This document shows, one piece after another, positions 1 through 63,960 of a stretch of DNA of 64,000 bases; position 1 is the stretch's first letter, and each line of letters opens with the position of its first letter. The stretch is from Candidatus Omnitrophota bacterium (GTDB lineage Bacteria > Omnitrophota > Gorgyraeia > Zapsychrales > Zapsychraceae). A program made the position numbers and the translations under genes. The DNA lies in contig JAJDCA010000075.1 of NCBI GenBank assembly GCA_029261055.1, forward strand, positions 77,573 to 141,572. The letters are read 5' to 3'. Under the pieces are notes generated by a model. That model made no database searches, was not told the DNA's origin, and saw only the letters and a program-made list of their open reading frames with translations.

Positions 1-2
1 AA

Positions 3-3000
3 TGGATAAATCGAGGGTTTGATAAATTTATAAAAAGGCTGGCCTCAAAAATCAGCAAGGACCAGAGGGATATTCAGGAGCAAGTTATCAAAGGTGCTAT
101 TAGTCGGGCAAGAATCGCGTATCTTGACAATTTTCAAAGTATTGTTTCTTTGAGAAAGGTTCAATACAGTCAAAGACTAGCAGATAATCTGCTTGATGTT
201 TTTTCAGAAGAGATAAATTTGATAACAGCACAGCTTAAAAATTACCGAGAGGTAAGCATATCTTCAGAAGATGCCCTTTATGTAGGATTGTTTGATGACC
301 TTCTTCATCTTTCCGGTGAGTTTATCCAAACAGAGGTATGTACGTGGTGTGATAGGGCTCGGCAGGTTAGGGAGGGAATGCAAGAAGGTATTCATTTTGC
401 TGTTATTGCTTTGAAGGATGCCCAAGGGCGGATATTAGGTTTTTCACAGGTCCAGATAATTAAAACACCCCTAAAGGGGAGTAAAGAAGAAGGTTCCCAG
501 GGGTATCGGGTTCTGTCCCTTACAGGGATAAATCTTTCCGAAAAGGCGATTCCGATCGATAGAAAAAGGGCGGTTTTGGTTATTCTTAAGGCAGCTTGGA
601 GTTTAGCTCAGGCTGCAAACTTACAAAAGGCAGTTGTCATTTATGCGAGTAATCTCCATTCAAATCAAGAAGACGTAAAGAGATATATTAGTGAATTTTC
701 AAGTCAGGGATATCTGAAGAAAGGCAATCTGCTTGAGACGGTAAAGTTGAGTCATAGTCCTTCGTACAGCTATCAGGAGGTGTATGTAATCGACAATCTA
801 CCGGAGATAGGGCTCATTACTACAGATAAAGAAGAAATAACAACGGCCCAAGAGAAGGAAGATTATCTTTTAGAGAGAAAACATTTAGGTTTTTATAATA
901 ACCTTGGCCATATTGTGCACAATGGAGAGTTGTCAGAAGAATATGCAGGGATGCTTAAAGAAGAGATAGAAGGAATATTAAAAACCATGCCGCAGGATAT
1001 TATTGAAGATTTAGGGCTTAATTTTGCCGGTGGAGGGATCAGCTTTAATGTCATTCATGAACCCTCTTTGGATCGCAGCACGATAAGCCGGACTCAGGAG
1101 GAGATTACGCTTTATTTGGGGGTGGATGTGCTCTATGGGGAGGGGAAAATTGAGACCTTAACGTTAAGGGAGCTTTTGGGCGAGGTTATTGCCTCTGTTA
1201 TCCTCGAAGATTATCAGCAATTGAAAGAAGCTTCAAAGACCAATGAAAACGCGTATTTTAAGATGGAATTGATAAAGGTGCTTTTAAATTATCGGGCTTA
1301 TTTGGCACTATATCATAAGTTGATTCAACGGAAAAACTGGACACCAGAAAATTATTTGGATGAAAAGATTGCGCAGGAAAGGAAGACATTATTAGCTGGG
1401 TACAGACAGGATTTGGAGAAATTTACAAAAGGCATGCATGGTGTCGCACAGTGGAATGTTTTTCTGAATATCATGGATGACGCGGATCCGGCATTTATGG
1501 TTATAAATTATGTGCATATCCTATTAAAAAATTCCTCATTAGACGAGAAGGGGATTTATACGATAATGATGAAGGTTAAAAATATGGATGTCTTGGGCAA
1601 ACCCAGCATTGCGCGGTTGAGGAATGTATTAAAGGAATTCTTTTTATCCGGGAAGGTAAGATTAAGAATAGGTCAAAAGGTAATAAACAATGAACGGTTT
1701 GATAATTTTGATGATACAGCTGCATTAACACAGGTCAAAGATACCCTGCTGACAACACAGGATGCCAATATTTTTTATCAATTAATACGAGAGGTTTTAT
1801 CTGGTTTACTACCGCTGGATGAAATCGGACTCAATAGTGAGATAAGCGATTTATTCGAGAAGGATATATTTTCATTGCCGGATAGAGAGGGTGTTTTAAG
1901 AAAGGTAATCCAGGATATTTTTACAAGACGCATAGGCGGAAAGGCTTTTATAGCATTAAAAGCACATCTTGCTGCAAATAGAGGGTTTAAAGAGATTCCT
2001 TATATAGAAGTTTTGAGTCAGGAATTAAATGAGGGAGAGGATGCCGATGATTATGAGTTTTTAAGGTACGTTGGGAATGAGGATGGTTTATACAAGTTGA
2101 TTTCAGATGAAGGTGATATAGTTCAGACACGGGATTGGGTGAGCCAGTTGTTTGTGATGAACCAGGAAAATGATGAGTCAACGCAAGCTTCTCCTCTCAA
2201 AGCTAATCAAGTAATACAAAAAGAGTATGAAGGAACAAGTTTTCTCGCCAAAGTCATAGATGCCGTACGTGGGAAAATTAATATTTTAAAACAAGAGGGA
2301 CAAATATGGGACGTAAAACGTAGTGAGGCATTAAAGATTTTAGCGCCATATATTTCTTACCTTGTTAATGCTCCACCAGATTCCATAGAAAAATTTGATG
2401 AAGTACGCCTCACCGCAAGTTTCAAAGGCACCAAAAATTCCTTCCTCGCTGTAAAATCAGAAAATGGCCGCAACATTCTTTACATTCATCTCTACGCCGT
2501 AGATAAGGTTGCTGATTTAGTTTCAAAACAGGCCGATAAAGATAAAGACTTTTTCCTTCAAGCCTTTGCCGGTCAAATCCGTCATGAACTTGACCGCCAT
2601 ATTAAGGAAGGCCTTGCCGATGGTCCCGAAGCCCAAAATCGTGACCTCGCCGACTTTACCAAACCTCAGCATTTAGACGAACTCACCGCCACGGTGTATG
2701 TATTAGATCACCCAGAAACATTTTATCTTCAAACAAATAAAGAATTTGAAACTGAGCTTAGAAATATTTATGCGATGTACAAGAAAAAAGAATCTACAAA
2801 AAGGCTGTTGCCCGAGGGCGATATAACTTCCCGTGGCGGGTTGAATGCCCTTGTAAAACTTACGCAATATGGGTTTAAGGCAGCAGTCTTTTTCGTTGGT
2901 TTTGTTGTTCATTTGGGAATAGTGACGGGTGTATATTTACTGTTTGTAGCTGGGGGGCGTTTGTTGTTAAAGGTTGTTGATGTATCGTTCCCGATTTGGC

Positions 3001-6000
3001 GAAGAATCTATGTTGAGTTGACACGTATCACAGGAGGATTTAATGATAAATCTGATTCTGAAGGAAATGAGAAGCCAGGCTCAAAGAACAAAACGCTTCC
3101 TAGCTTTGATCTCATGGCGGCAACGTTATTCGGGTATTTGGTAGCAAATCATTTAACAATTATGTTATCAGCTGGCGCGATTGCTGCACTTGTTGCGTTG
3201 AGTTTATTTGGAAAAATAGGAAAACGAACTATAGGTGAAGCAATAATCAATTTAACAAAAAGGTCGTTGCACAAGGGCTATATAATCTCCCGTGGCGGGT
3301 TGAATGCCCCTGTTCGGCTTCTTGGTTGGCTTGTCCGGCATACCGGCAAGGCAGCGGCCTTTTTAAAATATTTTAAAAAGAACTCTTTTTATTTTTTCAA
3401 TGGAATGAGTGTTGAGGGTTCCAAGAGTTTTACGTATGAGCAGCTTATTAATAGTAATAATTTTACTTACTTTAACAAGAGAGGCTTTTGGAAGGTTTCC
3501 AGTTTGGATTTCTTGTTTATTGAGAAGATAGGCATCATTTGGAATAGTTTTTGGGATCTTGGAGGTAATCGCCATAGCAATGACATCCTTATGGGAGGCA
3601 TTAAATTTATCGGAAGAGACAATAAGGGCAGGTCGTTGTTTCATGGTGGAGAAATCAGTGAAAGGAAAAGGAATAAGAATGATATCGCCCTGTTTGTGGC
3701 GATTAGAGGTCATCATAAACCGTATCTTCTGGGTTATTCCAAAAATCAAAGGAATTTTGAGCTGTTTTTAGCAGAAGAAGGTCATCTGTTGAAATTTTCA
3801 ATAAACGGGGAAGATCATGAAGGAGTTGTCTTTGTTTTTCAATTCCAAGATGAGAAATATGTTCTTCAAGCATTTTTAATGTCATCCAAAGTTCCTCCTT
3901 TAAGATTTATCGGGACATTTATTAATCAATTTATCCTTAGTGCTTCAAATATAACATATCTTTTAAGTCAGGGCAAGGCAGCGGCTTTTTATTCAATTTT
4001 AGCTAAAAGAGCAATTTTCTTATCGTCTGCTCCAGAAGGAACCCTACGGGTATCAAATCCTTTTTGGTTAAAAATTTTAATTAGTTCATGGGGAATATTT
4101 TCATCAAAAAGAAATTTCATAGAAGGTGTTGGGTTAGTTGACTTTGGCAAAAGGAACCGATTCACCGGTTCTAACGAGTTTGGTAGCAAAATGAAGCGCA
4201 GCCTGGATATGCTTTTTAGTCAGTTTGGGATAGTAGCGAGTGATGATTTCAGTGACCTCGATGCCGGCCTCAAGGAGTTCCAAAACAAGATAAATCATAA
4301 TGCGGGTTCCTTTAAAGCAAGGCCGGCCGTGGCATATGCGGGGGTTGATATCTATGTATTTACGGTAGTTAATCATGTATTTACTCTCCTTATTAAAAAG
4401 GATAGTCGGTCAAAATTAGTGTTTAACGGCAGTTTTGGAAAGTCTTTCTACAATCCATTTTTGTACAAGCCGGTCGTAAAGGATTCCTTCTTTGGTAGCG
4501 AGACGCCGGAGTTTGGCCATTTGACGAGGCTTAAGGGTAATCAGCAGATGGCTTGGTTTTGGGAATTCGAGATGCACTGGCTTCAATTCATCAAGATATT
4601 GAGTGCTGTCATGAGTATCCCAAAAGGCGGCAGCATCCGCGTCATTCTTAAATTTAGGGATTCTTTTGGTCGACATGTATTACCTCCTTTGAAAAAGTTT
4701 TTGTTCGGATCGGGACATGTTTCTAGCCGTAATAATATAGGCCAATCCTTTAGATTCATAGCGAGCCACCATAAACAAGTATCGTCCGGCGTACGATTGT
4801 CCGTAAATAAGATAAAGTCCATCTTTAGATTTCTTAAACAATGGTCGTCGGTAACAGGCTTCTTCCACTTCTTGAGTGTTCACTCCATGTCGCGCAATAT
4901 GGTTAATGTTCCAAGCATCCCATTCAAATTCAGTTATTCGCATCAATTTTCCTCTTTGTTAAAAAGGGTAGCATATGGAAGTAATGGTGTCAAGCTGCCG
5001 CAGGAGGAAAATCGACTAAAAAATAGTAATTCGCAATCAGGATGGTTTTTGAAAGCGGCCTTTTTTAGAGTTTTGAAAACGATAATATGGCCTACGCAAC
5101 AGCGTGTTGTATTTTTAGGGAAAGTAGCCGGTTTAACGTTAGGCCTTCTTCTGACGGTTATTGCGCCTGTTTTTGCTGGTGCTGGTGAGGTTTTTGTTGG
5201 CGGGTCTCCGGTTTGGATTGCGTTGGGAGGAATCATTGGTATAGGGATAGTATTAAACCTTTATAGGCGTGGGGGCAAAAAACAAGCAGAGGAGTTAGGG
5301 AAACAGGCAGGTACGATAAGGGAGGAAGGCAAAAAGACGGTATTACAGGTGATTAGCTCTTTTGCGATTGGTGGGGTGTCGCAGATGACTTCAAGTCTTT
5401 TATCAGATATAGAGAAAAATAGATTTACGGCAATAGTTTTATCCAGACATGTAGAAGGAGAGCGCGATAAAGAAATTGATCATCTTAGAAACAATGGTGT
5501 GAATTTTATTTTTGAGAAAAAGCAAAATTCATTTTTTAATAGTTTAGTCGATAAATCTATTATTCAACGAATAATATTCACGTTTATGTACATAAATAGG
5601 ACTATGTATAAGCCGTTCATTGGGTACTATTTATTTAAAACAATACAACCAGATGTGGTGCATTTTCATTCATCAAAGGGCTTAAGGCATTTTCCTATTA
5701 AATTTATTGCAAAGTTTATAATCAATGGCCCTAGAATTTTAACGACATATCATGATTCTGCATATGGTAGGAAGAAATTAATAAAGAAATATGGGCTGAT
5801 TTTAGGAGGTGTGATAAGCATTGCAAATTATTTTGATATGCGATTTATGAATGATGCGATTGTTGCGGTGACAAAAGCCCAAAATGTTGGTAGCGGCTCT
5901 AAAGTTCAGGTGATTGAAAACGGGGTTAATTTCGACTCGGTTCAAGAAGCCACACAGGATTTCAAACAGACCAGGTTTAAGGAATTAGCGAATACATTAA

Positions 6001-9000
6001 AAAATAATTTTGTCTTAGTAAATATTGGCGGGTTACATTCAGATAAAGGGCAAAAATATTTAATAACAGCTATGCAGACAATTATTAAGAAAATATCTAA
6101 CGTGAAGCTTCTTATTATTGGTGAAGGTCAAGAATATCAATCTTTAGAAAATCAAATAAAAGAGTTGAATCTTCAAGAGAGTATTGTTCTTTATGGAGCA
6201 GTAGATAATCAAGATGTTTCAAAAATTCTTTCTTTTGCAGATATTTTTGTTTTTCCATCAGTGTTTGAAGGGCTTCCTTTAGCCCCGTTAGAAGCCATGG
6301 CTATGGCAAAGCCTGTTGTGGCGAGTCGTGTAGGGGGGATCCCTGAGACTTTAGGTGAAGATGAAAGTGCAGGGTTATTAGTTCCTGCCAAGGATCCGAA
6401 AGCGTTGGCGGAGGCCATTATTCGGTTACATAACGATAAAGAATTATCTAAAAAAATGGGTGAGGCTGGACGAAATATAGTTCTTGAAAAATATACCGCT
6501 AAAACCATGGCCAAAGAATACATGGCCTTGTATGACCGCCTTCTTCTCGAAGCCAAGCCATTTCGTGTTTTGCGTTTGATTATGGATATTTTTCAGCATA
6601 TTTTATCTAGAACTCGAACTTTCTTTTTCCCAAAAAATTTTGATTACCATTTTGTTTTGAATCTAGGTTGGCAGGCCTGGTCTAAATTATTCAGCCTGCC
6701 AAGGTATATTCGTATACCTGTATTTATTTTCATTATTAGTGCTTGGTATATTTTTGGATTTCCTAGTATTGCGTTTGCTGATGGTGTTTTCTTTAGTGAG
6801 ACAATTTTTAGTTTAGACGTATTTGACTGGTTGTCGATTGTTTTGGGTGGGGGAATATTTATTTTTGTTGGGAAGACTTTTGGCATGTTTAATGACGGGG
6901 AGGAGGATAACGTTAAATATATTCCTGGCAAAACACAAGATGACGAGACTAAAAGACATGTCATGAATATTTATGATTCACCACCGAAGGGTGAGGAATA
7001 TCAGCTTTCTGCCAAAGAGGCGTATGACCAGATGGAAGCATTATTTGAAGAATACCAAAGTAGAATTGACAACTGGGAATATATCACCAATGGGGTGTCT
7101 GAAAAAGATTTTGCGCTTATTACGTATGCGGATTCCGTAACAAATAAGAATCAACCTAATGAAAAAGCTCTTAAAAATACATATAAACTTTTTAGAGGGA
7201 TTAAAAAAAGTAATGGGGGAATTAAAAAAACTAATAAGGGGAGATTTCCATTTACGATTTGGCAGCCAATATCCTTATTTCCTTCCAGTACAGATCGTGG
7301 TTATGGTGTGATTGACCATAAGGTTGTGGATCCTCGATGGGGAGACTGGGAGATGGTGGAGAAAATAGTCAAAGAATTCAATCTTAAATTGCAATTAGAC
7401 TATGTCATGAACCATATTTCTGATCAGAGTGAATTATTTACGGAATTTTTAAACGGGAATGAATTGTATAAACATTTCTTTACGTATTACAGGGCGACAT
7501 ATATTCAGGAAGAAATTGATGGGGAAATTGTTTATATGCGTAATGACGGAAGCCGGAGCCGGTTTGTTAATGGCGATGAAGGGGATCGTATTACGATAGA
7601 TATGTATAACGACCCAGAACAAAATATTCTCTTTGATCAATGGGATAACCGCGTGGATCGAAAGGATTTTGATCTCATAACCCGTCCACGAACTTCTGAT
7701 TTATTAACGGAAAAGACGCGGATAACGACAAGAGAAGATGGAACAACAGCAGCTATAAAAGTTATGGTCTGGACCACCTTTAGTCCTCACCAAATAGATT
7801 TAAACTGGCATAACCCTGCTGTTTTGGTTTTTATGACGGATGTATTTTTAAATCTTATAAGCCATGGGACAAAAATTGTCCGTTTAGATGCCGCCCCCTA
7901 TATATGGAAAGAATTGGGGACAAACAGCGCTCATCAAAAGAATGCCCATAAATTGGTAAAACTTTTCCGTTCAATGGCTGAAAAGGTTGCCCCTACTGTC
8001 AAGCTTCTTCCTGAAATTAACGCATCAATTGAAGATGCCAAGAAATATTATGGCGATGAGAGACATCAAGATGAAGGTCATATTTTATATGATTTTGGTT
8101 TCTTTCTCGAAATGGTATCGGCGCTCCAAAAAGGGGACGCCAAAGAACTTAGAAAATATCTTCAAATGCATCCCCATGTAAAGGAATATTATTGGTACGG
8201 TTTGCTTAAAGGGCATGATGGGGGGCCATTGTTAGCGGCTCAGAATATTTTGGATCCAGAACGATACTGGGATGTGATCACTTCATTTAAAGAGCACAGC
8301 GAAGATATGTATGGTAGGGAATTAATTATGTATCGCAAAGTTAAAAATTTAATGGATTCGCTTAAAGAGGATAATAACAGCTTAAGCACACATCTTAAAA
8401 ATATTCTTGGAAAAGAAAAGGTGGATGCCACGATTGATTTTGCTTTAAGCCTTTTAAAAGATAAAAAAGAGCGGCCGTGGGAATTTTATAAGAAGCTTAT
8501 AAGCTCTGAAGAAGTTCCATACGAATTAAATTCGACGGTGTGGAGCCTGTTGTCTTCTTATAGAAAAAAGGGAGAGAATATGTCCACGACAGCAGCTCGA
8601 TATTTTGCTGCATATGATCCAATATTCACCGAAGGCGTTATTCCTGCGATAGAAATTACGGACTTTTTTGGAATGGTGAATATGACTGCAGAGTACAAGG
8701 CGGTGGTTACCCTGGATCAATTTAAAAAAGCAAGTCTTTCCGAAGAGGATTTTAACATACTGAAAGAAATGGAGTGGTTTAAATTAGAAAAAGGAAGTCA
8801 AACAGAAGGATCCTTTAGAAAAGAATTGAAAAATATCAGAAATGATATCGAAAAAATGTTTTCAGATAATATAAAACGTAAATACGTCATCGAGGTTTTA
8901 GAGGCCGCTTTAGAAGAAAGATCATTACGTAGTGTTCACCGTTTTCATATAGAATTATCTGATGCTATAAGAAGAATGAATGATGAATCGCCAAAGGGGC

Positions 9001-12000
9001 GGGTACAGCCATTATTGAGGCTGGCTAATTATAGTAGCGAACATAAAGCTCTTCATCCGGATGGTGAGGAAGCGGTGATTGAATTAGCTAATAAAGAAGT
9101 TTTTGCCTTGGCGCGTAAACATGATGGGGAGGCTATCATAAGTTTACTGAATGTTTCGGGAAAGGCCCTTGACCTGGAAATACCGATTGCACAATTTTTA
9201 GCTAATGACAAAATTAAGTCCGGACCACTATTTACACGTGGCGATGAGTTAAAGATGTCGGATCTTATTCGAGAGGAAGAAAAACATATTTCATTAGATG
9301 GGAATATTGAAGTAATACGTATTCATATGGAACCGTATCAAGCTCTTAAAATTGAGACAACTGTCAAGGAAGATGAAATTGAGGATGATAAGGGGGCGCA
9401 AAGAGTAATAAAACTTTTTCAAGAAGGGTTGGCGCGCGCCGCGGTGGGTATCGGTATTATTTTTACAACCAGTTTGTTCGGGTTAAGCGATATAGCTACT
9501 TTTTTCTCATTTTTTATAGGCACAGTATTTTTAACATGGCCGTTGCTGCACCTCGACGTCCTTCCCGTGGTGGGTCGATCGCAGACTCGGGTTCCCCAAT
9601 CCAATGTAGCAGCAGCTTTTAATGTTGAGCCATTTCAGGGCGAAGATAAAAAATCATCGAAGGAAATTATGGATGTCGCAACAATTGAGTTTGAAGAATC
9701 TATGGATGCGTTGGGTAAAGAAAATAATCTTCGTACTTTGGAAGAGGGCGTAAGCGTGGCGTCCTCTTTGGGAGACGGTGCAAGAATGTCGAGAATACAC
9801 ACAAGAAGAAAAATGCCAACGCCAGCGCAAAGAGATAAATCGTTTTCTTCTGTTAATCTCGCTTTAGCACATATTTTTGAGGAAGATATTTATTTAGATA
9901 AGATTTGGAAAAGTGTATTAATGGTTTTTGGTGTGATTCCAGCACATGAATATGGGCATCGTATTCCAGGAAGCCGATGGTTTGAGGAAGGGCCTTTGAT
10001 GGATAAAATTTTTACAGGCACGATGAATTTGACGCGCGGATCGCCGCTTTCTGTATTCTTTTGGGGACCGATGATGAATTTAGTGGTCGGTCTCGGAATT
10101 GTCCTTTCCGTTGCATTGATCGGATTCGGTAGCATCTTCACTCCTCTTGCCCTCTTCGCCGGCACACTTCATTTAGCTGCTTTTATTTACGAGTTTGTTT
10201 CTCCGCAAGGAGATTTTCAAAAATTATATCAAGGGCTGTCGCACCGTAACGTTACCTCCCGTGGCGGGTCGGTCGTTTCGGTTGTAGTAGCGGCAGCCCT
10301 TAATTATATAAAAAATTTAGCCGCTGTTGCATCTCGTCGTCCTTCCAGAGGTGGGTCGATCGCAGACTCGGGTTCCCCAATCCATGCAGCAGCGGCTAAA
10401 TTAGCTAAATTTATTTTAAAGTTTTTAAAAAGGTCGCCGTTTATAACTACAGCGTTCCGCTTCCCGTGGCGGGTCGGTTTCGCTGTTCTAAGCGGCATCC
10501 TAGCGGCGACCTTTTTATTCTATTTTCCTGACGTAACATTTGACTCGAGCAGTCACTGGGAATTCCTCCTCTTTAGTTACGCGGCTCTGAGCAATTCTAA
10601 AGATTCTCAAAATGATGAAACGCAAATAACACAAGGAGGTATACCCGTGAAGGTTGGTGACTTTATGTCGGTTGATCTTTTGTTTGGTAAAGAAGCAAAA
10701 AATATAGTGTTCATGAGCATGGAAAACGTCCGAGAGAGAAAAAGTACTGTTGTGATATTAAAGAATAGATCGACGGGTAAAAGATTAAAAGTAAAGTTTG
10801 TAGCAATAAAATCGGAGGGTACAGAAGGTCTTTTAGTCAAATTTCGAAATCCGCAACGATCGCAAGAAGACTCATCCGTTTATAAAATTTATAAGGATAA
10901 GGATAAAAAAAATAAAATAGTGTTGGCGGATAAAAATGGAATACACATCAGAAATTTAAAGAATTTAAGAGGACGTATAAAACTTAACCTTAGCGAGGTT
11001 GCTAAACCCCAGAGGAGTTCTTTGCTTAGAAATTTCTTTTCTGAAACGGAACAAGCATCTCATGCGCTTGCTGTGGAGGGGGACAGGGTAATTAGACCAT
11101 ATTTAGAGAAAATAGGATTTTCAGAGGAAGAAATTATTGAGCTCGACCCTACAGAATATTTTTTAAGAATTGTTAAGAAATATAGAAAGAAGTTTGGAGA
11201 AGATCAAGAAGGTGTTATGGATGAAGAGTTTGTTATTGCAGAAAGGGTCAACGGAAAATTCCAATGGCGCCTTAGAGGGGGTGAAGAGGCCTTTAGGGAA
11301 ATGGCACAAGTAAATTTACACTTACTAAAGGAAGAAATCGCTTATCTTCTTATGCAGATTAAAGTTCATGAAGCGGGGGAAGATGAAGAAGAAGGCATGG
11401 ATAATCAAATAAAAACTATTGTATGGGTAAGAAATAATATACGGCCTGAGAAGGACATTCCGACGGCTCTTGATATTCCGCAAAGTCTCAACCTTAATCG
11501 CACAGCTAAGGCGGCCCTGGTAGAGTACCTAAAAATTTTAAATAAATCAAGAAGAGTGAATCCTGTCGGGGAACGGATTAAAGACGCAAAAGGTACTTTG
11601 GCCATTTTGGAAGATAAATTGAGTGGGTTGGAACGAAATAATCCCAAAAAGCTTTTGAAGGATGTCAGGCGTATGAAAATATTGGCAAGCAAACTCATTA
11701 ATTCCATGCGGTTAAGAAGGGACATAGGCCCTGGATATTCTTATACATTAAGAACGCTTAATAAACGCGTTACACGGTTAGCCGTCGACACATTAGACGC
11801 CATATTAATAGCGGTTGATACCTCTGAAGCCGATAAAAAAACTACACGTAAACTATTATTAACGGCTAAAAGATTTAAAGACATTATTGAATATAGTATT
11901 GCCTACGACGACATTATTAATAATCGGGAAATTATTGATACAGTTAAAGGATACCGGATACCTTATATTTCATTGAATTACAAGGGAAGCGTGATCAGAT

Positions 12001-15000
12001 TATTAGTAAGAGTTATCAATGTGTTGATATTTGGTATCAATTTTGTTGTTGGTTATATTTGGGGCATGTTCCCTCGTATTAGAATATCGCTGAATGTAAT
12101 ATTGGCATCCAGTAAAATTCTCATTAACAAAGGGAATGTCATTTATGGAGGTTTATATGAAGATGTTTCGGAGGGAGGTTCACCCAAAGAATATTTTGAA
12201 GCCGTGGGGCTGGGGAGTTATGTAGGTATTCAGTATTTACGTAATTCTGTATTGGAAGGAGAAGAATTTGGATTTCATGCCTTTACCATAGTCCGTAAAG
12301 TGAGTAGTCGATTTTTTACGTTAACGTGGCCTTTTCTTGCCTTGCTCTTTGCTTCTTCGACCCAAAGTTTTTGGGAAAAAATAATATCTCAAGATTTTTG
12401 GGGAAAAATAGAGCTCACGGATTTAGCGATATCGTATGGCATGTCTATAGGATTCTTTTGGCTGACATTAATACGAAAAAATTTAAAGTATCAATTCTTA
12501 AAAGGGAGATTTAGGAGAATTATTCGAAATAAATGGGTGTGGCTTCATGGATTAAAAAATAGTCGTATTGAGGCTTTGCAGGCATTGAGGGCGGCTCGAG
12601 AGAGAGAAATGTCTGCCCCACAACCTAATGTCGATATGATTATTGTTGTTGTTGGCGACAGTAAGGATAACGAGAAGCAGGTCGCTTTTGAGAATATGTT
12701 TGCCGGTTCTGAAGGTACTATTTGGCGAAATGATGTCCCGGTATTGATCGTAAGAAATAATCCTGGTAAAGGAAGTGGAAATGCACTTTTAAAGATGGCA
12801 GAACTTTTTGAAAATATTCAATCTCCTGCACTACAGGTTATAGATGCCATGCAAGATGATCCTGATATAACAATGGTTAATAAGGGGGTTCAAGTGAACG
12901 CCCTTGATCATTTAACGGGTAAAAATATTGAAGATTTAAGTATTATTGTAGCTACCAATGGACACGATGTGGATCCAAGCAAAAAAGAGTTATTATTCCC
13001 CGGGCTGGAGCAAAAGCTCGCCACACTGGAATATCAACTATCTAATGGTTATCTGGGAGCGCAATATGATAAAGATAATGCGAAAAATGGGCTGATTTTT
13101 CTTGATGGTGAGGGTGTTTATTTAGGGCCTGTAGAGCGAAGAGGAGATATTACATTGCTTTCAGCCATGGTCAGTTTAAAGAAAGTTCGCAAAGGCTTAG
13201 CCTTTTTTCATAGTAATTCTGAGGACGATGAAGAAGGCATTAAAAATATTTATGATAAATTTGCATTTGATTTTGTTCGGGAAAATCATCCACTCCGATT
13301 TGAGTGGCATGAGTTAAAAAAAGAACAAGTTCCAGTTGTTACCGGTGTGAAGCTTGTGAGTTTTAAATTTTTGTCGCTGCTCAATGATTTGCAGGCCCAC
13401 TTAACACAGGTTGAAAATGGTGAGAAGGATTATGAAGACATTTTAGCCACTATTAAAGATGCGGATGTAAGGAAAAAACTCACGAAATACAGAAAAAAGA
13501 TTGCCGGCATAAGGAATTTACCGATACGGATTTCCGACATTATAACGCCTGTCTTGCGCATAAGTACCGGGGCAGATAAGAAGCTTATCAAGTACCTTGA
13601 GGTTTATTACGCCGGAATGAAGAAAAGTTTACGGAATTTAAAATATAAGAAAAGCCCAACGGAAAATGAAGATATCGTTACTTTTTATGCTGAATTGTTT
13701 AAGTTTTATCGGGAATGGTTTAAAGGTAGAAGGAGTCAACCTTTTAGCTTTTATTCTCCACAGGTTACGCATGACGAGGCATTTTATTTTAAGAGGTTCA
13801 AAGATGAATCTAAATACAAAGATGATTTAGATGAATTTAACTCCATAGTGGAGGAAGCTGAAAATAATAAAAAATCAAGGGGAGCAGTGAAAAAGGCCGC
13901 CGGTTTCTTATTAGCCGCTATTGGAATTGCATGGGCTATACTACCGGCCAAAACTTTCGGCGATGATCTTTTAAGTCCTATCGGTCAGGCGTTGGCAGAG
14001 ACCTCTTCCTTTTGGCAATGGGTGACGATGGCGATAGGTGTTGGCGTATTTGGTTTTTTCTTGAAAGAATCTAGTATTCTGGTCAGCCAAGAAAATAAAT
14101 TTTGGGAAGAAATGAACCGTCGGGATCATGACGAGACAGTTCGTGAAAGAAAGATTAAGTGGCGGTTTCATAACAGAGGGGATGAAATTCTCGACACCGT
14201 TAAAATGGTACATGAAACAACCATTCAGCGGGCTGTTCGGAGTCCCGGCTACATTGAAACATTGTCGATGACTTTATTCTGGAGCCGTCTGCTCGTAGGG
14301 TTCAATAAATTTCGGAATGACCGGGTCACCGGACGGGTCAGGGCGATTGATTATCTCGTCAAGAAAATACAGGAGAACTGGTATCATTTGCCTTTTGCCG
14401 GGGTTATGGCCGCATTAGCCGGGCCGATTGCGCATGCTAATGATATGTTTTCAGGGCAAATTGTTTCCGGGAAAAAGGTGGGGCAAGCACTTCTTGATGT
14501 GTCCATAGGAGATTTAAACGATGAGAAGGGTATTTTTTCCACTGCGATAACGGATAAAGCCGGCACGATGCACTTGCCGCCAAACGAGAAGGCGTATGTT
14601 CTATTGGCCTCTAAACAATTTCGTATTAAGAATCCGGACGGAACATTCCAACAGCCTTCGATTTTAAAAACGCCCAAAGAAAATTTGGAATTTATGCTGA
14701 AACAATTACAGTCAGAATCACCGGTGGGAGTTATTACGATGAAAGATGTCATTATTGCTATCCCGAGGGATGAACGTAATGACGAGCTTGCTTTAACCAT
14801 TGAGCGTCAGGGGGCTACCGTGTTGCGTTCAGACAAGTATTTAAATTCTGTGTCTGTGCAGGTTGTCCTGCGTGCGAAAGCAGTGCCTGAAGAGCAACGA
14901 ATCACGGCAGCCATGGGCGTATTTACGCTGGATGAGAATGGGTTGGCTGGAATTTTGGCGCAGGGTCAGGACGGAGTTCTTTCGGCAAGAGTTGTTCCGG

Positions 15001-18000
15001 AAAGTTTTAGAAATTCTATGTTGATTGAAAAGGACGGGTTTCGTAAGGCTGCCTTCACACGATCGGAGATACTAACTTTAGCTAATTTTGATATTTTCAG
15101 CCCTGATGAAGATAGTGATGCCGCCGCTAAAGAGTATTCTCGCAGCGATAAACTATTGGCTAACTCATGGATGAAAGAAGTGAAGGAGGCCAGAAAGAAA
15201 GATTTTAGTAAATATGAAAATACGTATGATCGAAAGAGACATGTGTATCAAGTTGCGCATGACTTTAAAATGGATGCACCTTCCTTTATGAACAAAACAC
15301 GGACCGCTATCAAAATATTAAACGATGGGACAACGTTAGCATCTTTGGGATTTATAACGACAAGAACTTGGGATCAGGAATTAACCGAACAGGATTTAGC
15401 TCCCCGTGTCGAAGGGGACAAAGGCAAGGTATTTATCCTTGGGATTATTAAGGATTATTCTGGGTTACAGCTTAACGAGAAACCCATTCCTGGTGTCAGA
15501 ATTAATCCACAAACTGGTGACGCGGTGGTGCATATTGTTTCGTTTTACGACTCAGGGCGTGTGACTATTAGTAGGGTGGTGTTTAAATTGCGCATAGGAC
15601 CTCTTAATCAGCAATTAAGTCTTGAAAAAGGCAATCCGTCAGAGGGGAAGGTCCGGTATGATTTGGCCGTGGTGTATGACCTGTTGGGGTATTACCGGGA
15701 AGCCATAGATCAAATCAAGAAAGGATTGAAAGTTCGTGGCGCTGAAAAAAATATTTATAAAAAATTGAGTGTATTGAAGATTAATACTAAAGGTTTGCGT
15801 GTGCTGGACGGCACAAAACATTGGTCCGGTGTTAAATCTGCCATAAGAGGTTTTAAAAAAGTGGCGAAAGCAATAAAAGACTTTAAAGAAAAGAATGGGC
15901 ATGATTTAGATTTGTCCCTTTATCCGAAGGACATGGTTCGACGATTATATGAATTTATGGGAGACGCGATTTACAGGAACGATCCATACAAGGCGGCACG
16001 GTTTTATCGGGAGGCCTTGAAAATGGCCCCGCATAATCTTGGCTTGTACAAAAAATATTATGACCAAATCTTAAAAGATTCTTTGGATAAGTATTTTGTC
16101 CTTTTGGAAGATTTCATGAAAAGAAACAAAAGAGATCCCGATGGTAAGGAAAAGTTAGACATGGTGTTGTTTCAGATTGGCATCAGGGTGGAAAATTTTA
16201 AGGGGTGGTTTCACCTTCAGGACAATTTAAGTGAGGGGGAATTAGAAAGGCTGGGCCACCGATTAATTCTCAAAACCGCTTTGGAGGACGAGCATCCGGA
16301 TTATCGGACATGGTGGTATTTATATATTGAACAATTATTGAAAGACCTTAATGAGATGAGTCAGGGTGATTTGGTCTCACGGTATGAGTCTTTCGGTATA
16401 ACCGATACTCTTGCACATAATGTGATTGTTTACCGGGAAAAATTAGATCAGGGACAAAAAATGCGCCTGTATCAACTTTCCGATATCAAACAGTGGCATA
16501 CAGGGGAAAATAAGGGCCTGATTGTAAATTTATTGTATCCAAAGACAGAATTCATTGAGCAATTATTTCATTTTAAACGCGGTAAATTAAATGAACTGGC
16601 TAATGAGTCTATTCCTTCGGAAACAACGAAAGGAAGTAATGAGCAAGCCGGCATTAAATCTTTCAGTACAGAAATAGAAGCAGGTCTGGTGGCCAAACAT
16701 GACTACGAATATCAAAGCAAAATTTTTTCTTTGGCGTGGGCGCACCGTGATCGGGCCGTTGAGCTTTTGGGTTATGGCGACAGCGTTGGGGCTGAACGAG
16801 AATATAATACCGCCATCAATCTGTTTAAAGGCAATCGGGTTTATTTTGAAGGGGTCTTTCCTATGGATGCGCAAACGGCTTTGGGACATATTTTTAATGA
16901 GATGTTCTGGATTTTTTCAAAAGAAAAATATAAAAAATTTGCCATAGATAGTTTTCAAGTCGTGATTGATAGAGAGTTATTTGATATTGATTATAGAAAG
17001 GGTTATCAAGCGGATAAAAAACTTCCGGGTTTTCAGGAAGAAAGAGTTCGAGATTTCGGAGAGCTGGGGCAATTATTTTCGATGGGAGATCGGTTTTATG
17101 CTTCTTATGCCAGGGAACAGTTGAAACGTTTAATGGACCCACAACAATACGATGCTTTAATTCAAGATGTAGAAAAATATATGATCTTACTTAAGAGGGC
17201 GCAAGAGCCAGAACAAAGCACACAAGATAATAAAGGAAATGAAAAGAAAAATTGGGATGATTTACGGGTGACGATTGAGAATATTTTTAAAGTCGCAGAA
17301 AAAAATCTACTGGATAAGGGCGCGGTGGGGTTTAAAATTCAAAAAGCGTTTAGAAAGGCAGAGTTAATAGAAGGCGTAGATGAGGAAAGTTTTTCAATCA
17401 AAGATTATTTAGGAAGCTTCACTTCAAAGGAAGATGCGACCAGTGCAGCAGAGACGTTAAATACTGAAAACAATGTCACCCAATATAATCCGTACGTCGC
17501 CGACTTCCTCATTTGGTTAGCCCAGGCATGGCAAGAGCATTGGGCGTCGCGAAAGGATTCTTCATCAGACGATTCCTCTAACGGTCGGACTATCTTGTCG
17601 ATCATTCTTTGGTTTGCCTTTCTTCCAACTCTCTTATTCACATGGGCCATGCAGGTAGCCGTTTCCTCTGGCGCTAATTTCTTTGGGCCAATCGGGAATG
17701 CTGTTGCCGAGCCGTCGTCTATAGGGACGGTAGGGACGTGGGTGGGGGCATTTTTAGGGATGATGGGGATTTTGGGGCGTATTTATATGACGGGTCAAAA
17801 TACGAATGCTCGTACAGAGGAAGAGAAAGAAATGCAAAGCCATTTTGATCCAGGGGCTGGGTTGGGGTTTTTAAAAAGTATGTTAGGGACAAAATTATTA
17901 TCCGTGAATCAAGCTTCTGATTCCGGTCAGGAAGCAGCTAAAGAAGAATCGGTTGAGCATAAAAGGTTTGCGCTTTTAATGTCGAGGCTTAGCGTGCATA

Positions 18001-21000
18001 TGTTGAAATTTATGGGCAAGGATTTAAAAGACAATACATCCGGCCTTTTTAGAGCCAGGGAGTTTATCGCTAAAGAGTTGCGTTTAGTTTGGCACCATTT
18101 CCCTTTTTCCGGTGTTATTGCAGTTTTGTCTCAGGAATTTGAAAAATTGAGAAATATGTATAGTGGCGAAGTTATGGTCGGCAGGGAAATGGGCGAAGGA
18201 CCTACTTTTGATGTTATTCCGGGGGATTTTGAAAAGAAAAAAGGTTTTATGGACGACAATGTATTGGGCACTCTTATTTCTATGGGCGTGACAGATGAAT
18301 ATGGTGTCAGGCATGTGCCTCCGAATATTGATGCGGAGGTGATTTTGTTGGGAGAAAAATTTAGGCATGCAAAAATTTCCATCAACAATACCCCTGCAGA
18401 AAATTTGGCTATTATGAAGCGATACATAAATAAAGACTACAAGGATTTACGCATAGCGGTTCCATTAGGCAAGAAATATGACAGGCTGGCGAAGGCCATT
18501 CGTCAAACAGGGGCTCAGGTCATACGTCTTGATGATGAATGGACCGGTCCTATATTTGCCTTGAGTGATTACGATCGTATCCCCGGAGAAAAACGCTTGG
18601 ATGCCATTATGGGGGTTAGGCCATTAAATCAGGCGGTGTTGTCAGCTATTCAAGTGATAACGATGGGCGGCCGGATACGTGCCAGAGTCGTGCCTAAAAA
18701 TATTTCAGCCAGACGCGTGGCGCATGAAATAAGTGACGACGATGTATTTTCTTATGAAGAAGTGATCCTGTTAGCTAAATTTAATATATTCAGACCGCAA
18801 AGATTTTATAGAAGAGGAACTATAACGGATGATGACGCTCGCGCATGGTTGCAAAGAATTGAAAAGGCAATAATTAATAGGGATGTGTCATCAAGGATGG
18901 GAAGAATTATCGGGAATAAAAGATATGCTTATCAAGTCGCGCATGACTTTCAGATGACATTGAGAGAGTTTGTGAGAAAAACTGAGATGGCGCTTATGCA
19001 AATAGGGAAAAAAGAAACATTCCAAACCCTTGGTTTTAAGGGGGCGGAAGACTGGGATAAAGAATGGACCGAAGAAGATTTGGCGCCGCAGCATAAAGAA
19101 GATCATGGCAAAGTATTTATCGTCGGGATAATCAAAAATTTTAATTGGATGTATGCAGATATAGCAGATAAAACCCCTGTATTGGGCGTCCGCATTGATC
19201 ACAATACTGGGGTTGCCAAAATTAACGTCATTGTAGCCGGAGCTTCAGGGAAAATTGATATTGTCGAGACAACATACAAAACCGTCATCAGCACTGAGCG
19301 TGAGAAATTGGAAAAAATTAAAAGGGTAGGTAATAAAAAAGTAGAAGCAGCCATAGCGTTAAGCATGGGATTAGCCGAAGCTGGACATTTTGCCTTGGCT
19401 TTGAACAATCTGAAAGAAGCCTTGGAATGGGATGGAACAAGCCCCACACAAAAAAATGATTTAGAGCTTATGATATACAATATTCAAGGATTAAAGGCAC
19501 TCACAGAAACCCCAAAGTTAGAGGATATAGAAACAGCGGTTATTCCTCAATTTAAAAAATCCCAGGAGAAAGCGGGGGCAAACGATACGTATCGTCTTGG
19601 CCATATGCTCAGGAGAGTGTATGAATACTTAGGAGATGCGTATAAAAATCAAAAGAAATATTCTACGGCCATTAAGTATTATCATAAGGCTTTAAATCAA
19701 AATCATCAGGATAGTTTTCTTTATAATAAATTGTTTAAACAGGTGATGGAGAAAACCATCGCACGGTATAGAAGACAAATACAGCAAAGGATTAAGATAG
19801 CAGGAAGTTACGAGGGACTAAAATCCTTTAAAGTAAGGATAGTATTTAAAACGCGTTTTAAATCAAGGCATCTTAAGCATAAAGAAGATCCGAATAGAAT
19901 GTTACGTCAATTTTTACTGCGGGCGATTTTGAAAGAAGAGAAAAAATATTATCATACACTTTTAATACGTTATTGGGATCAGCTGCAACGGGACATTAAT
20001 CAACTTTCGGGAGATGCTTTAGTACGTCGTTACGGGGAATTGGGTATGGATGCAAATAAGGTTAGGTTTTTGACGGCATACAAGAAAGGGGAGTGGTATC
20101 ACTGGCTAATATTTTGGAAGAAGAATCGGATGAGAGCCATAGGGCTTTATCAGATAGATAAGGTCAAGAGATGGGATTATGGTTTTATTACGCGGTTAAT
20201 GCTTCCGGGTAAAGAGGTTATTGAAAAGTTATTTAATATCAGAGGTGGGCTGGCCAATGAATCAGAAAGAGAAGATATCCCTTCAGTGGAGGATCCGGTT
20301 GCTATGTTAGGCATGCGTCTTAAATTTTCCAGAGAAGAGCAACGGGAAGGTATTGTGAGAATGGATATAGGAAGGAATTATCAAAGGGAGGCTTTTTCCT
20401 TGGCGATGACGTTCCGGGATATAGGGGCCGAGTTATTTAGTGATGGACAGAAAAAAGGGGCTGAAAAAAATTATCGTCAGGCAACGGAGATACTTGAAAA
20501 AAATAGAGAACATTTTGAAGCGATATTTACTTTGACCGCTCAATTAAGACTGGCTGAAATCTATGAAGAAATGGAACAATTTTTTCCGGATCAAGGATAT
20601 TTAGACAGAGCGATCCTGGCCTATGAAATTATGACGGATAAAGAAAAATTTTATGAGGCGTATAAATATTTTAATGGGAAAGAGCGGAACCGACGAGATT
20701 TTGAAGGGATTATAGAATTTTATGGAAAAGAATTAATCAGGCGGGCCCAAGAACGGTTAAATCAATTACAGCCCTCCGAAGAGAAATCAAAAAAGAAGGA
20801 TAAGAAAGATGAAATACTTCGTACGATATCTTTATTGGGGCAGGCTCATATTCAGGCGGATCATTTAACAGAAGCAGAATTAACGAAAGCAAATACAAAG
20901 ATAGAATCTCTTGTTCAAAAAGGACGTGAATCGGAGCATATACAGACTACGGTTATTATTACCAGAGAAAATGAACATAGTAAATTTGTGAGGGCTGGCC

Positions 21001-63690: not shown

Positions 63691-63960
63691 AAGAAGCAGA
63701 GAAGTAAGAAACAAGATGCAGAGATTTAAAATGAGGGCCAGAGGTGTAAGAAGTAAAGAATAAAGAAAGAGGAATTAAAAAAATAGAGACAATTTTTAGT
63801 AAAACAGTATTAAACTTTTTCTTTTTTTTACGTCTCTACTTCTCACATTTTTGTTTCTTACATCTCTGCTTCTTACATCTTTGCTTCCTGCTTCTCTACT
63901 ACAGGCATCTTTACTTCTTGCTTCTAACCTCTCTGCTTCTTGATTCTTTGCGCCTTTGCT
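63691..63960. repeat. Imperfect inverted repeat (63691-63715 AAGAAGCAGAGAAGTAAGAAACAAG versus reverse complement of 63850-63874) followed by CT-rich tandem motifs (cttcttacatct / ctgcttct) upstream of mutL
   Basis: 23 of 25 positions match between the arms, with a spacer of about 135 nt. The motif AGAAGCAGAGA recurs at least three times in reverse complement across 63850-63960. Confidence 0.5.

Follow-up and report, generated by a model that had tools for sequence, protein, structure and literature searches.

How should one understand a protein in which a glycosyltransferase domain and a domain resembling sugar phosphorylases are carried on one chain between membrane helices? This question is raised by a stretch of 64,000 nucleotides (nt) from a Candidatus Omnitrophota genome (contig JAJDCA010000075.1, positions 77,573 to 141,572), hereafter called the window, nearly the whole of which is occupied by one giant open reading frame (ORF). 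A sequence-only reading of this DNA had proposed that the giant protein carries a GT4 glycosyltransferase domain followed by a sucrose-phosphorylase-family GH13_18 domain, and that these two, together with a HAD-like segment, represent the enzyme classes of sucrose or glucosylglycerate synthesis and phosphorolysis. The description that we favour, with moderate confidence, is that the GT4 and GH13 domains lie within one very long inner-membrane Omnitrophota protein of the multi-enzyme metabolic type, in which the GH13 domain would act as a membrane-tethered phosphorylase of the GH13_18 type. It is noted that our confidence in the phosphorolysis step alone is lower than that in the description as a whole.

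The ORF at nt 150 to 61652 of the forward strand encodes 20,500 amino acids (aa), and since the frame is still open at the first base of the window, the full protein must be longer. A stop-free frame of 61.5 kb at a GC content of about 40% cannot have arisen by chance. The features on which the following argument is built are listed below, with all of them on the forward strand and with residue numbers counted along the giant protein.

nt 1..61652, forward strand: giant ORF, with the listed start at nt 150 (ORF scan of the 64,000-nt window).
nt 5106..5261, forward strand (aa 1653-1704): transmembrane (TM) hairpin before GT4 (Kyte-Doolittle scan and counts of Lys and Arg, K/R).
nt 5367..5933, forward strand (aa 1740-1928): N-terminal Rossmann half of GT4, divergent (Pfam Glyco_transf_4).
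nt 6000..6524, forward strand (aa 1951-2125): C-terminal, donor-binding half of GT4 (Pfam Glycos_transf_1).
nt 6720..6869, forward strand (aa 2191-2209 and 2222-2240): TM hairpin between GT4 and GH13 (hydropathy scan).
nt 7053..9365, forward strand (aa 2302-3072): GH13_18-like domain, a (beta/alpha)8 barrel with a C-terminal beta domain (Pfam, database search, AlphaFold).
nt 7887-7889, nt 8013-8015 and nt 8217-8219, forward strand: GH13 catalytic sites D2580, E2622 (in PEIN) and H2689-D2690, respectively.
aa 2448-2487 (40 residues), 2706-2730 (25), 2747-2779 (33) and 2849-2919 (71), forward strand: insertions in GH13.
nt 9429..9548, forward strand (aa 3094-3133): TM hairpin after GH13 (hydropathy scan).

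For the GT4 domain, the Pfam family Glycos_transf_1 (PF00534) matches aa 1951-2109 with an E-value of 8e-41 and a shorter piece with an E-value of 6e-42 (143.6 bits, cutoff 26.4), and the E-x7-E motif, which had been read as intact, is indeed so, being EGLPLAPLE at aa 2040-2048 (nt 6267-6293). The match of Glyco_transf_4 to the N-terminal half is weak (E 2e-5, 25 bits, below the cutoff of 28.5), with the alignments of the NCBIfam models for MGlcDAG synthase and VpsD also reaching into this half. The domain is thus a bona fide member of family GT4 (retaining, GT-B fold), its donor half well conserved and its acceptor half divergent, to which neither a donor nor an acceptor can be assigned: there are 51 NCBIfam matches of GT4 type, every one far below its equivalog cutoff, with the top ones being PEP-CTERM/XrtA-associated and exopolysaccharide (EPS) glycosyltransferases, BshA and GlgA types and MGlcDAG synthase. 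Among solved structures in the PDB, TarM (1.7e-22) and the BshA-type 2jjm (1e-21) are matched ahead of the sucrose-phosphate synthases (SPS) 6kih (1.5e-17) and 2r60 (9.5e-9). The SPS type was therefore rejected for this GT4, since its structures are outranked by the TarM and BshA types and it is absent among the top NCBIfam matches.

For the GH13 domain, the Pfam family Alpha-amylase (PF00128) is matched with an E-value of 5e-16 (59.4 bits, cutoff 22), so that in the Pfam part of the profile scan that had been suggested as a check both GH13 and GT4 are found above cutoff. A search of 5.8 billion proteins with this domain gave 649 matches, with the best having an E-value of 4e-52 and about 196 bits. 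The best 120 of the 649 matches are 429-920 aa long, nearly all 550-650 aa, have 25-34% BLASTP identity to the domain and, where they are named, are mostly annotated as sugar, glucosylglycerate or sucrose phosphorylases; the very best of them, so named, measure 560-640 aa and show 27-35% identity. Among plasmid genes, those annotated "sugar phosphorylase" (Meiothermus, Priestia; E about 1e-38) come ahead of gtfA sucrose phosphorylases (E 1e-18 to 6e-20). In the consensus of the homologues, beta-strand 5 is followed by TETN and loop A contains PYELN; (T/S)ETN at the end of beta-strand 5 and a Glu in place of Gln in loop A are the fingerprints of glucosylglycerate phosphorylase (GGaP) (PMC7178133). 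The domain can thus be inferred, from sequence, to belong to GH13_18 and to be nearest to the glucosylglycerate phosphorylases.

The catalytic residues of this domain are conserved. The motifs LITYAD, RLDAAPY and GHDG occur, as had been reported, at nt 7116, 7881 and 8211, and comparison with 119 homologues shows that D2382, H2422, R2512-P2513-R2514, R2578, D2580, E2622, N2624, H2689-D2690, Y2791-E2792 and R2927 are all kept, in columns that are invariant or nearly so. In particular, the columns of D2580, E2622 and D2690, which belong to conserved regions II, III and IV, respectively, are invariant and the three residues are aligned with those of Escherichia coli YcjM, so that the claim of a phosphorylase-type GH13 with Asp, Glu and Asp in their places holds, with phosphorylases as the nearest relatives. 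The roles of such residues have been tabulated as nucleophile, acid/base, transition-state stabiliser, contacts of subsite -1, phosphate loop and two glycerate contacts of GGaP (PMC7178133); the correspondence of our residues to the numbering of GGaP and of the Bifidobacterium adolescentis sucrose phosphorylase (BaSP) is a reading of motifs rather than a direct alignment with BaSP. With this reading, the equivalents of the phosphate-site residues of BaSP, the Pro134/Arg135 loop and Tyr344, are kept as R2512-P2513-R2514 and Y2791. Loop A reads EEVPYELN, with Y2791-E2792 in PYELN invariant in the homologues, and thus the loop-A marker of GGaP is present. The other marker is not: the strand-5 motif is PEIN instead of (T/S)ETN, with Glu and Asn kept, Thr/Ser changed to Pro and Thr to Ile. 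Nor does the domain conform to sucrose phosphorylase sensu stricto, the loop-A motif N(L/V)D(I/L/V)YQ being absent and the score for TIGR03852 being 117.5 bits against a cutoff of 334.4.

The predicted fold agrees with this assignment. An AlphaFold model built on the alignment of homologues, the structure prediction that had been recommended for this region, is confident, with a mean predicted local distance difference test (pLDDT) of 79.8 and a predicted TM-score (pTM) of 0.83; at the catalytic strands pLDDT exceeds 90, and the insertions alone have low values. All of the top Foldseek matches of the model are GH13 proteins, and the TM-score normalised by the target (TMt) is 0.82-0.84 for GH13_18 phosphorylases vs 0.67-0.69 for amylosucrases.

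The unusual strand-5 motif is shared with another protein. When aa 1951-3072 (the C-terminal half of GT4, the hairpin and GH13) were searched against 1.84 billion representative proteins, exactly one long relative of the GH13 domain was found, P0121, an unannotated protein of 4,260 aa from the metagenome ERZ21869602 (locus L012). Its GH13 domain is 33% identical to that of the window (E 2e-87) and has in common with it PEINA, the insertion in domain B and a helical insertion after HDG. P0121 is also a multi-hairpin membrane protein, with TM hairpins around its GH13 and with a TreT-like GT4 (PF21269) downstream of it. It differs from the window protein in that the order is reversed, GH13 preceding GT4, the GT4 is of another type, the 71-aa insertion is absent and the remainder is unrelated. 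Peptide patterns retrieved no close GH13 relative from the GTDB species-representative genomes or the JGI metagenome contigs, and a degenerate DNA pattern for RLDAxxYxWKE-32aa-PEIN had zero matches in the JGI metagenome contigs. The PEIN subclade is thus rare. The aglycone specificity of the domain, a member of this rare subclade with its shared insertions, probably differs from that of every characterised enzyme.

Some side observations on these two proteins are recorded here. In the window, a 21-nt tandem duplication (2.3 copies, nt 7193-7242) coincides with a 13-residue loop insertion of GH13 and encodes GIKK(S/T)N(G/K) repeats, a recent small expansion inside the enzyme domain. P0121 is encoded at L012:3910-16692 on the forward strand, and its contig also has a gene weakly resembling glycogen phosphorylase, one for a GDP-glucose phosphorylase-like protein (GDPGP1_C), a number of short genes that lack annotation and overlap at their ends, and a further long ORF exceeding 2,865 aa. 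The C-terminal part of P0121 contains three near-identical repeat units of about 400 aa each.

We now consider on which side of the membrane the two domains lie. The linker between GT4 and GH13 had been described as a three-helix membrane segment. What is found is only two strongly hydrophobic segments of 19 residues each, separated by an acidic loop of 12 residues having no K/R, with the claimed third helix being insufficiently hydrophobic. With a linker of two helices instead of three, GT4 and GH13 are predicted to be on the same side of the membrane. The hairpin before GT4 likewise has a short loop without K/R and five K/R after its second helix. For the hairpins before, between and after the two domains, the domain-facing flanks have 3, 5, 3, 1, 3 and 2 K/R per 15 residues, while the inter-helix loops have zero. 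Based on the positive-inside rule, this local charge bias of K/R-rich flanks and K/R-free loops would place GT4 and GH13 on the cytoplasmic face. The cytoplasmic side would also suit enzymes that need nucleoside-diphosphate sugars (NDP-sugars), phosphate, GTP, ATP, S-adenosylmethionine (SAM) or DNA. Over the whole protein, a Kyte-Doolittle scan gives about 50 candidate TM segments (33-55, depending on the threshold), mostly as closely spaced pairs. A parity count of these segments, the result of which was inconsistent, was rejected as unreliable, because the scan also picks up buried strands such as aa 9850-9868 inside a second GH13-like domain, and the local charge bias of the hairpins was used instead.

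Taking these results together, we propose that the chain alternates enzyme domains of ordinary kinds with membrane hairpins of two helices, and that the GH13 domain would catalyse the double displacement of GH13_18 enzymes. In the proposed reaction, Asp2580 would form the beta-glucosyl-enzyme, with Glu2622 acting as acid/base and Asp2690 stabilising the transition state, after which alpha-glucose 1-phosphate would be released, reversibly, by a phosphate bound at the Arg-Pro-Arg loop and Tyr2791. At the cytoplasmic face NDP-sugars and phosphate would be available, with GT4 placed directly at the membrane. That the domain is active, and that it would favour phosphorolysis over hydrolysis, we infer.

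A bolder version of this proposal, to which we give a small but real chance, is that the PEIN-type GH13 is a retaining alpha-glucoside phosphorylase of new specificity that exists only as a membrane module of very large proteins and partners a neighbouring GT4. The two domains would then form a conserved cassette, interconverting an alpha-glucoside derived from NDP-sugar and glucose 1-phosphate at the inner membrane face, and the giant protein would be a membrane-anchored metabolon and not a secreted effector. Two cases cannot establish a functional GT4-GH13 cassette, but the recurrence is worth noting, and any coupling of the two domains is putative.

Several observations weigh against the favoured description. 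As regards the enzyme, the best solved structures by E-value are those of amylosucrases and sucrose hydrolases, which are not phosphorylases; the scores for TIGR03852 (117 bits vs 334) and treS_nterm (105 vs 678) are far under the curated cutoffs; among the 79 columns with a conservation of at least 95%, the domain departs at 21, where the 119 homologues alter 0-6; and position 2372, an invariant His in these homologues, is Gln. As regards the fusion, the co-occurrence of GT4 and GH13 amounts to two proteins (n = 2) with opposite domain order. As regards the topology, it rests on a crude hydropathy scan and the local charge bias, the N-terminus lies outside the window so that the absolute orientation cannot be counted, and published work puts many such domains outside the cell (bioRxiv 10.1101/2023.11.21.568195; 10.64898/2026.06.07.730766).

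Among the rival explanations, the one that survives best, although we consider it unlikely, is that the GH13 domain is a sucrose-type hydrolase or transglucosylase (amylosucrase, sucrose hydrolase or TreS-like), with water or a sugar as the acceptor. It would account for the top PDB matches by E-value (7esh, 5e-25 by sequence and 1.6e-30 by Foldseek), for the near equality of the treS_nterm and sucrose_gtfA scores (105 and 117 bits) and for a +1-site motif, PEIN, that is unlike that of every characterised GH13_18 clade. However, GGaP-type phosphorylases reach about 196 bits in the full database vs about 91 bits for the best amylosucrase of the PDB, the annotated plasmid matches put sugar phosphorylases first, the structural coverage given above favours GH13_18, and the Arg-Pro-Arg phosphate loop and the Tyr-Glu of loop A are conserved.

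By a little less probable still is the explanation that the domains face the periplasm or the cell surface and act on glycans of prey or host, as has been proposed for proteins of the Archaeovorin type. It draws on the published reading of giant Omnitrophota proteins as cell-wall-targeting effectors whose sugar-metabolic domains are predicted to be extracellular, and it is helped by the fact that any signal peptide, like the N-terminus, lies outside the window and by the inconsistent parity count. The charge pattern of the hairpins around GT4 and GH13, in which K/R cluster towards the domains and are missing from the loops, argues in the opposite direction. Moreover, a GT4 requires nucleotide sugars, and the GGDEF, HD-GYP, ATP-dependent helicase, SAM methyltransferase and helix-turn-helix (HTH) domains of the same polypeptide need cytoplasmic substrates. 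Scans of the 20,500 aa seen also gave no SecA-DEAD, dockerin or HEAT domain.

It could also be supposed that, within an accreted mosaic gene, the carbohydrate domains have no catalytic role and are either passengers undergoing decay or pseudoenzymes of structural use. The same protein does contain a pseudo-phosphatase, a second GH13 without both conserved His and a GlpX-like domain scoring 27 bits against a cutoff of 259 (all described below), and in the first GH13 21 of the 79 near-invariant positions are lost and the 21-nt tandem duplication sits in a loop. Against this, every checked catalytic or substrate-contact residue is kept in the first GH13 and in GT4, and the frame is uninterrupted for 61.5 kb. 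Furthermore, the altered positions are to a significant extent common with those of an independent protein at 33% identity: of the 79 columns, 16 are altered in P0121, 21 in the window and 11 in both (hypergeometric P = 8e-5), and four of the co-altered columns carry the identical new residue. This argues for a shifted constraint, that is, for a distinct lineage rather than decay. We consider the passenger explanation quite improbable.

Least probable of all, in our view very improbable, is the coherent pathway of the sequence-only reading, in which GT4, HAD and GH13_18 on one polypeptide would make and phosphorolyse sucrose or glucosylglycerate: the equivalents of both glycerate contacts of GGaP (N2624 for Asn275, E2792 for Glu383) are present and 6kih and 2r60 are among the GT4 matches, but SPS is outside the top GT4 matches, so that GT4 shows no special SPS affinity, the HAD-like and GT-A-like segments are without a Pfam, PDB or database homologue, and the candidate parts are 4,000-8,000 residues apart with unrelated domains between them. 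Glucosylglycerate synthesis, for its part, usually proceeds via a GT81 enzyme (GpgS), not a GT4. The negative results for the two segments are as follows. Neither the GT-A-like segment at 12.6 kb nor the HAD-like segment at 32.4 kb had any match in Pfam (E<=1), in PDB sequences (E<=1) or in the search of 5.8 billion proteins. A single-sequence AlphaFold2 model of the former (aa 4140-4420) has a pLDDT of 40 and is unusable; in the region of the latter (aa 10601-11000) the motif D.D.[TV] is absent, the closest string being DLEDNLT, so that the DxDxT ascribed to it is not literally there.

Further domains of the giant protein, and the gene next to it, are the following.

nt 18078..18734, forward strand (aa 5977-6195): divergent class II fructose-1,6-bisphosphatase (FBPase, GlpX)-like domain (Pfam FBPase_glpX).
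nt 28431..29669, forward strand (aa ~9428-9840): second, highly divergent GH13-like barrel (Pfam Alpha-amylase).
nt 30711..31091, forward strand (aa 10188-10314): dual-specificity phosphatase (DSP)-like pseudo-phosphatase (Pfam DSPc, PDB DUSP10).
nt 61828..63681, reverse strand: mutL, convergent neighbour of the giant ORF (NCBIfam TIGR00585, E 7e-146).

The FBPase-like domain, a carbohydrate domain that the sequence-only reading did not mention, matches FBPase_glpX with an E-value of 6e-13 (48.8 bits) and the NCBIfam model glpX with 26.7 bits against a cutoff of 259, and it has an older paralogous segment at aa 4587-5636. The second divergent GH13-like barrel, which had been placed at 28.4-29.7 kb, is borne out by a Pfam Alpha-amylase match with an E-value of 4.5e-7 (29.9 bits, above the cutoff of 22) and by a PDB match to neopullulanase (1.2e-4). 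It retains RVD (aa 9696-9698), the candidate acid/base E9770 and NFD (aa 9834-9836), but conserved regions I and IV have both lost their His. It should be noted that hmmscan missed this domain (region nt 28200-29900) in a 5,000-aa chunk and found it above cutoff in a 567-aa or a 1,000-aa piece; since chunks of 5,000 aa miss weak domains, giant proteins need tiled scanning. A rescan of the whole protein in 1,000-aa tiles gave no further carbohydrate domain. The DSP-like segment receives weak confirmation, matching DSPc with an E-value of 1.2e-4 (22 bits, below the cutoff of 33.5) and DUSP10 with 1.4e-4; the phosphatase loop HCxxGxxR is replaced by NRKGLNSV, and with the catalytic Cys and Arg absent the label of pseudo-phosphatase is warranted.

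The remaining domains comprise tetratricopeptide (TPR) repeats, an Upf1-like helicase, two SAM methyltransferases, a nucleotidyltransferase and a YfdX-like segment. In total the giant protein has about 15 distinct domain types, with an estimated more than 80% of the sequence having no Pfam match. An HD_5 domain of HD-GYP type and, immediately behind it, a GGDEF domain (nt 21981-23102, aa 7278-7651; E 1.5e-21 and 7.7e-29) make up an embedded pair for cyclic di-GMP turnover, located downstream of the TM hairpin at aa 7020-7063. Near the C-terminus, before the final TM hairpin, there are an HTH_3 motif and a ThiS/ubiquitin-like beta-grasp domain (nt 59514-60050, aa 19789-19967), odd companions for a membrane enzyme array.

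At the level of the gene, kilobase-scale internal duplications are present, old ones with 27-60% protein identity, pairing aa 4587-5636 with 5824-6851 (nt ~13908-17057 with ~17619-20702), aa 7752-8950 with 12637-13805, aa 16932-17111 with 17502-17665, aa 14058-14250 with 17795-17984, and aa 14257-14316 with 14834-14893. Among the duplicated parts are TM bundles, a methyltransferase, the FBPase-like region and the N-terminal half of that with the helicase. These repeats imply that the giant gene grew in part by internal duplication followed by divergence. Cysteine is scarce, with only 10 in the 20,500 residues, all within five pairs: CxxC at aa 64/67, 16453/16456 and 18942/18945, and CC at aa 8201/8202 and 13404/13405. 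This depletion suggests selection against free thiols, with a few metal or redox sites retained.

The five nearest relatives of mutL in species-representative genomes have 50-60% identity, four of them labelled Candidatus Omnitrophota and one Deltaproteobacteria, and on this basis mutL anchors the window taxonomically in Omnitrophota. A 15/30-nt tandem repeat (2.8-4 copies, nt 63820-63900) precedes the start codon of mutL by about 140 nt. At two loci from Omnitrophota metagenome-assembled genomes (L001:12399-21785 and L005:12708-21809, both on the reverse strand) an ORF convergent with mutL extends over more than 3,000 aa and is still open where the retrieved sequence ends. BLASTP gave no similarity between these two long ORFs and the giant protein, so that the loci were of no use for a synteny comparison; the position beside mutL is conserved, with a content that is either unrelated or diverged beyond recognition. 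The window has positive GC skew over its whole length, and no Rfam family or tRNA was found within its 64 kb.

The domains that the sequence-only reading named for the interval nt 5420-9365 are correct, with matches far better than chance would give. As to what this locus means, the GT4-GH13 fusion is an instance of a known phenomenon in Omnitrophota, and it is unsurprising in itself, since sugar-metabolic domains including GT group 1 have been catalogued in hundreds of such proteins. The view of the fusion as unusual therefore stands only in part: multi-enzyme Omnitrophota giants were already published, and a GH13 domain of sugar-phosphorylase type is mentioned neither by West-Roberts et al. 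nor by Nielsen and Lui, and no paper turned up in a full-text literature search combining Omnitrophota and sucrose phosphorylase. What is new is a GH13_18-like domain type that is rare and divergent but, from its residues, apparently catalytically competent, so far seen only membrane-tethered beside a GT4. The role of Omnitrophota giants is debated, between extracellular effectors directed at the walls of prey and membrane-anchored arrays of cytoplasmic enzymes, and the present domain offers a small test object, having 770 residues, an intact and recognisable catalytic centre, a confident model and flanking hairpins from whose charge bias a cytoplasmic location is predicted. An active phosphorylase, if demonstrated together with its membrane side, would bear directly on this debate, and its activity would also add a new specificity to GH13_18, a subfamily that is mined for biocatalysis.

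Finally, we compare the protein and its GH13 domain with known systems. Giant membrane proteins of Omnitrophota that tile glycosyltransferase, glycosidase, FBPase, PGM, HAD and methyltransferase domains are known (bioRxiv 10.1101/2023.11.21.568195; 10.64898/2026.06.07.730766). The "Archaeovorins" of West-Roberts et al. have glycosyl transferase, glycosyl hydrolase, methyltransferase, FBPase, PGM and TPR domains with many TM regions (bioRxiv 10.1101/2023.11.21.568195), and the 2026 preprint of Nielsen and Lui, covering 916 proteins of at least 10,000 aa, defines a class of "multi-enzyme metabolic cluster", reports a Pfam module for sugar metabolism with PF00534 (127 proteins) among its families, and classes 46% as TM-only, which it interprets as anchorage in the membrane with the domains in the cytoplasm (bioRxiv 10.64898/2026.06.07.730766). 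The present protein resembles these in coming from an Omnitrophota genome, in exceeding 10,000 aa, in its numerous TM helices, in a variety of Pfam families of which no single one prevails, in its domains of the GT group 1, FBPase, methyltransferase, HD and TPR types, and in that most of its sequence has no Pfam match. It differs in that no SecA-DEAD, dockerin, HEAT, starch-synthase or PGM domain is found in the 20,500 aa seen; of the Archaeovorin content, the SecA DEAD-like, HEAT, NUDIX and peptidase domains were likewise not detected in these 20,500 aa, with the N-terminal part lying outside the window.

Among individual enzymes, the amylosucrases and sucrose hydrolases (GH13_4) have the best PDB E-values, by sequence and by Foldseek, and a very similar nucleophile region; however, only the central ~150 residues align well by sequence, TMt is lower, as noted above, and GH13_4 enzymes do not use phosphate. 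BaSP (1R7A/2GDU) has the same fold, with a TM-score of 0.77-0.78 on the target, and the equivalents of its catalytic triad, Asp50, His88, Arg190, His289 and Pro134/Arg135 loop are present in the window, but in place of N(L/V)D(I/L/V)YQ the window has VPYELN, and the sucrose_gtfA score of 117 bits is under the cutoff of 334. The nearest sequence family is GGaP (EC 2.4.1.352, GH13_18), represented by YcjM of E. coli and the GGaP of Meiothermus silvanus; with YcjM, annotated as glucosylglycerate phosphorylase, the identity is 26% over 400 aa (E 3e-37). Shared with GGaP are Asp/Glu/Asp, the RPR loop, the C-terminal beta domain, and the Asn two residues past the acid/base and the Glu of loop A, of which the latter two are markers of GGaP (PMC7178133). 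What sets the window domain apart from it are PEIN for (T/S)ETN, the 21 altered positions among the 79 near-invariant ones and four insertions of 25-71 aa. Moreover, whereas GGaP is a soluble enzyme of about 560 aa, the domain of the window is tethered by hairpins within a protein of more than 20,000 aa.

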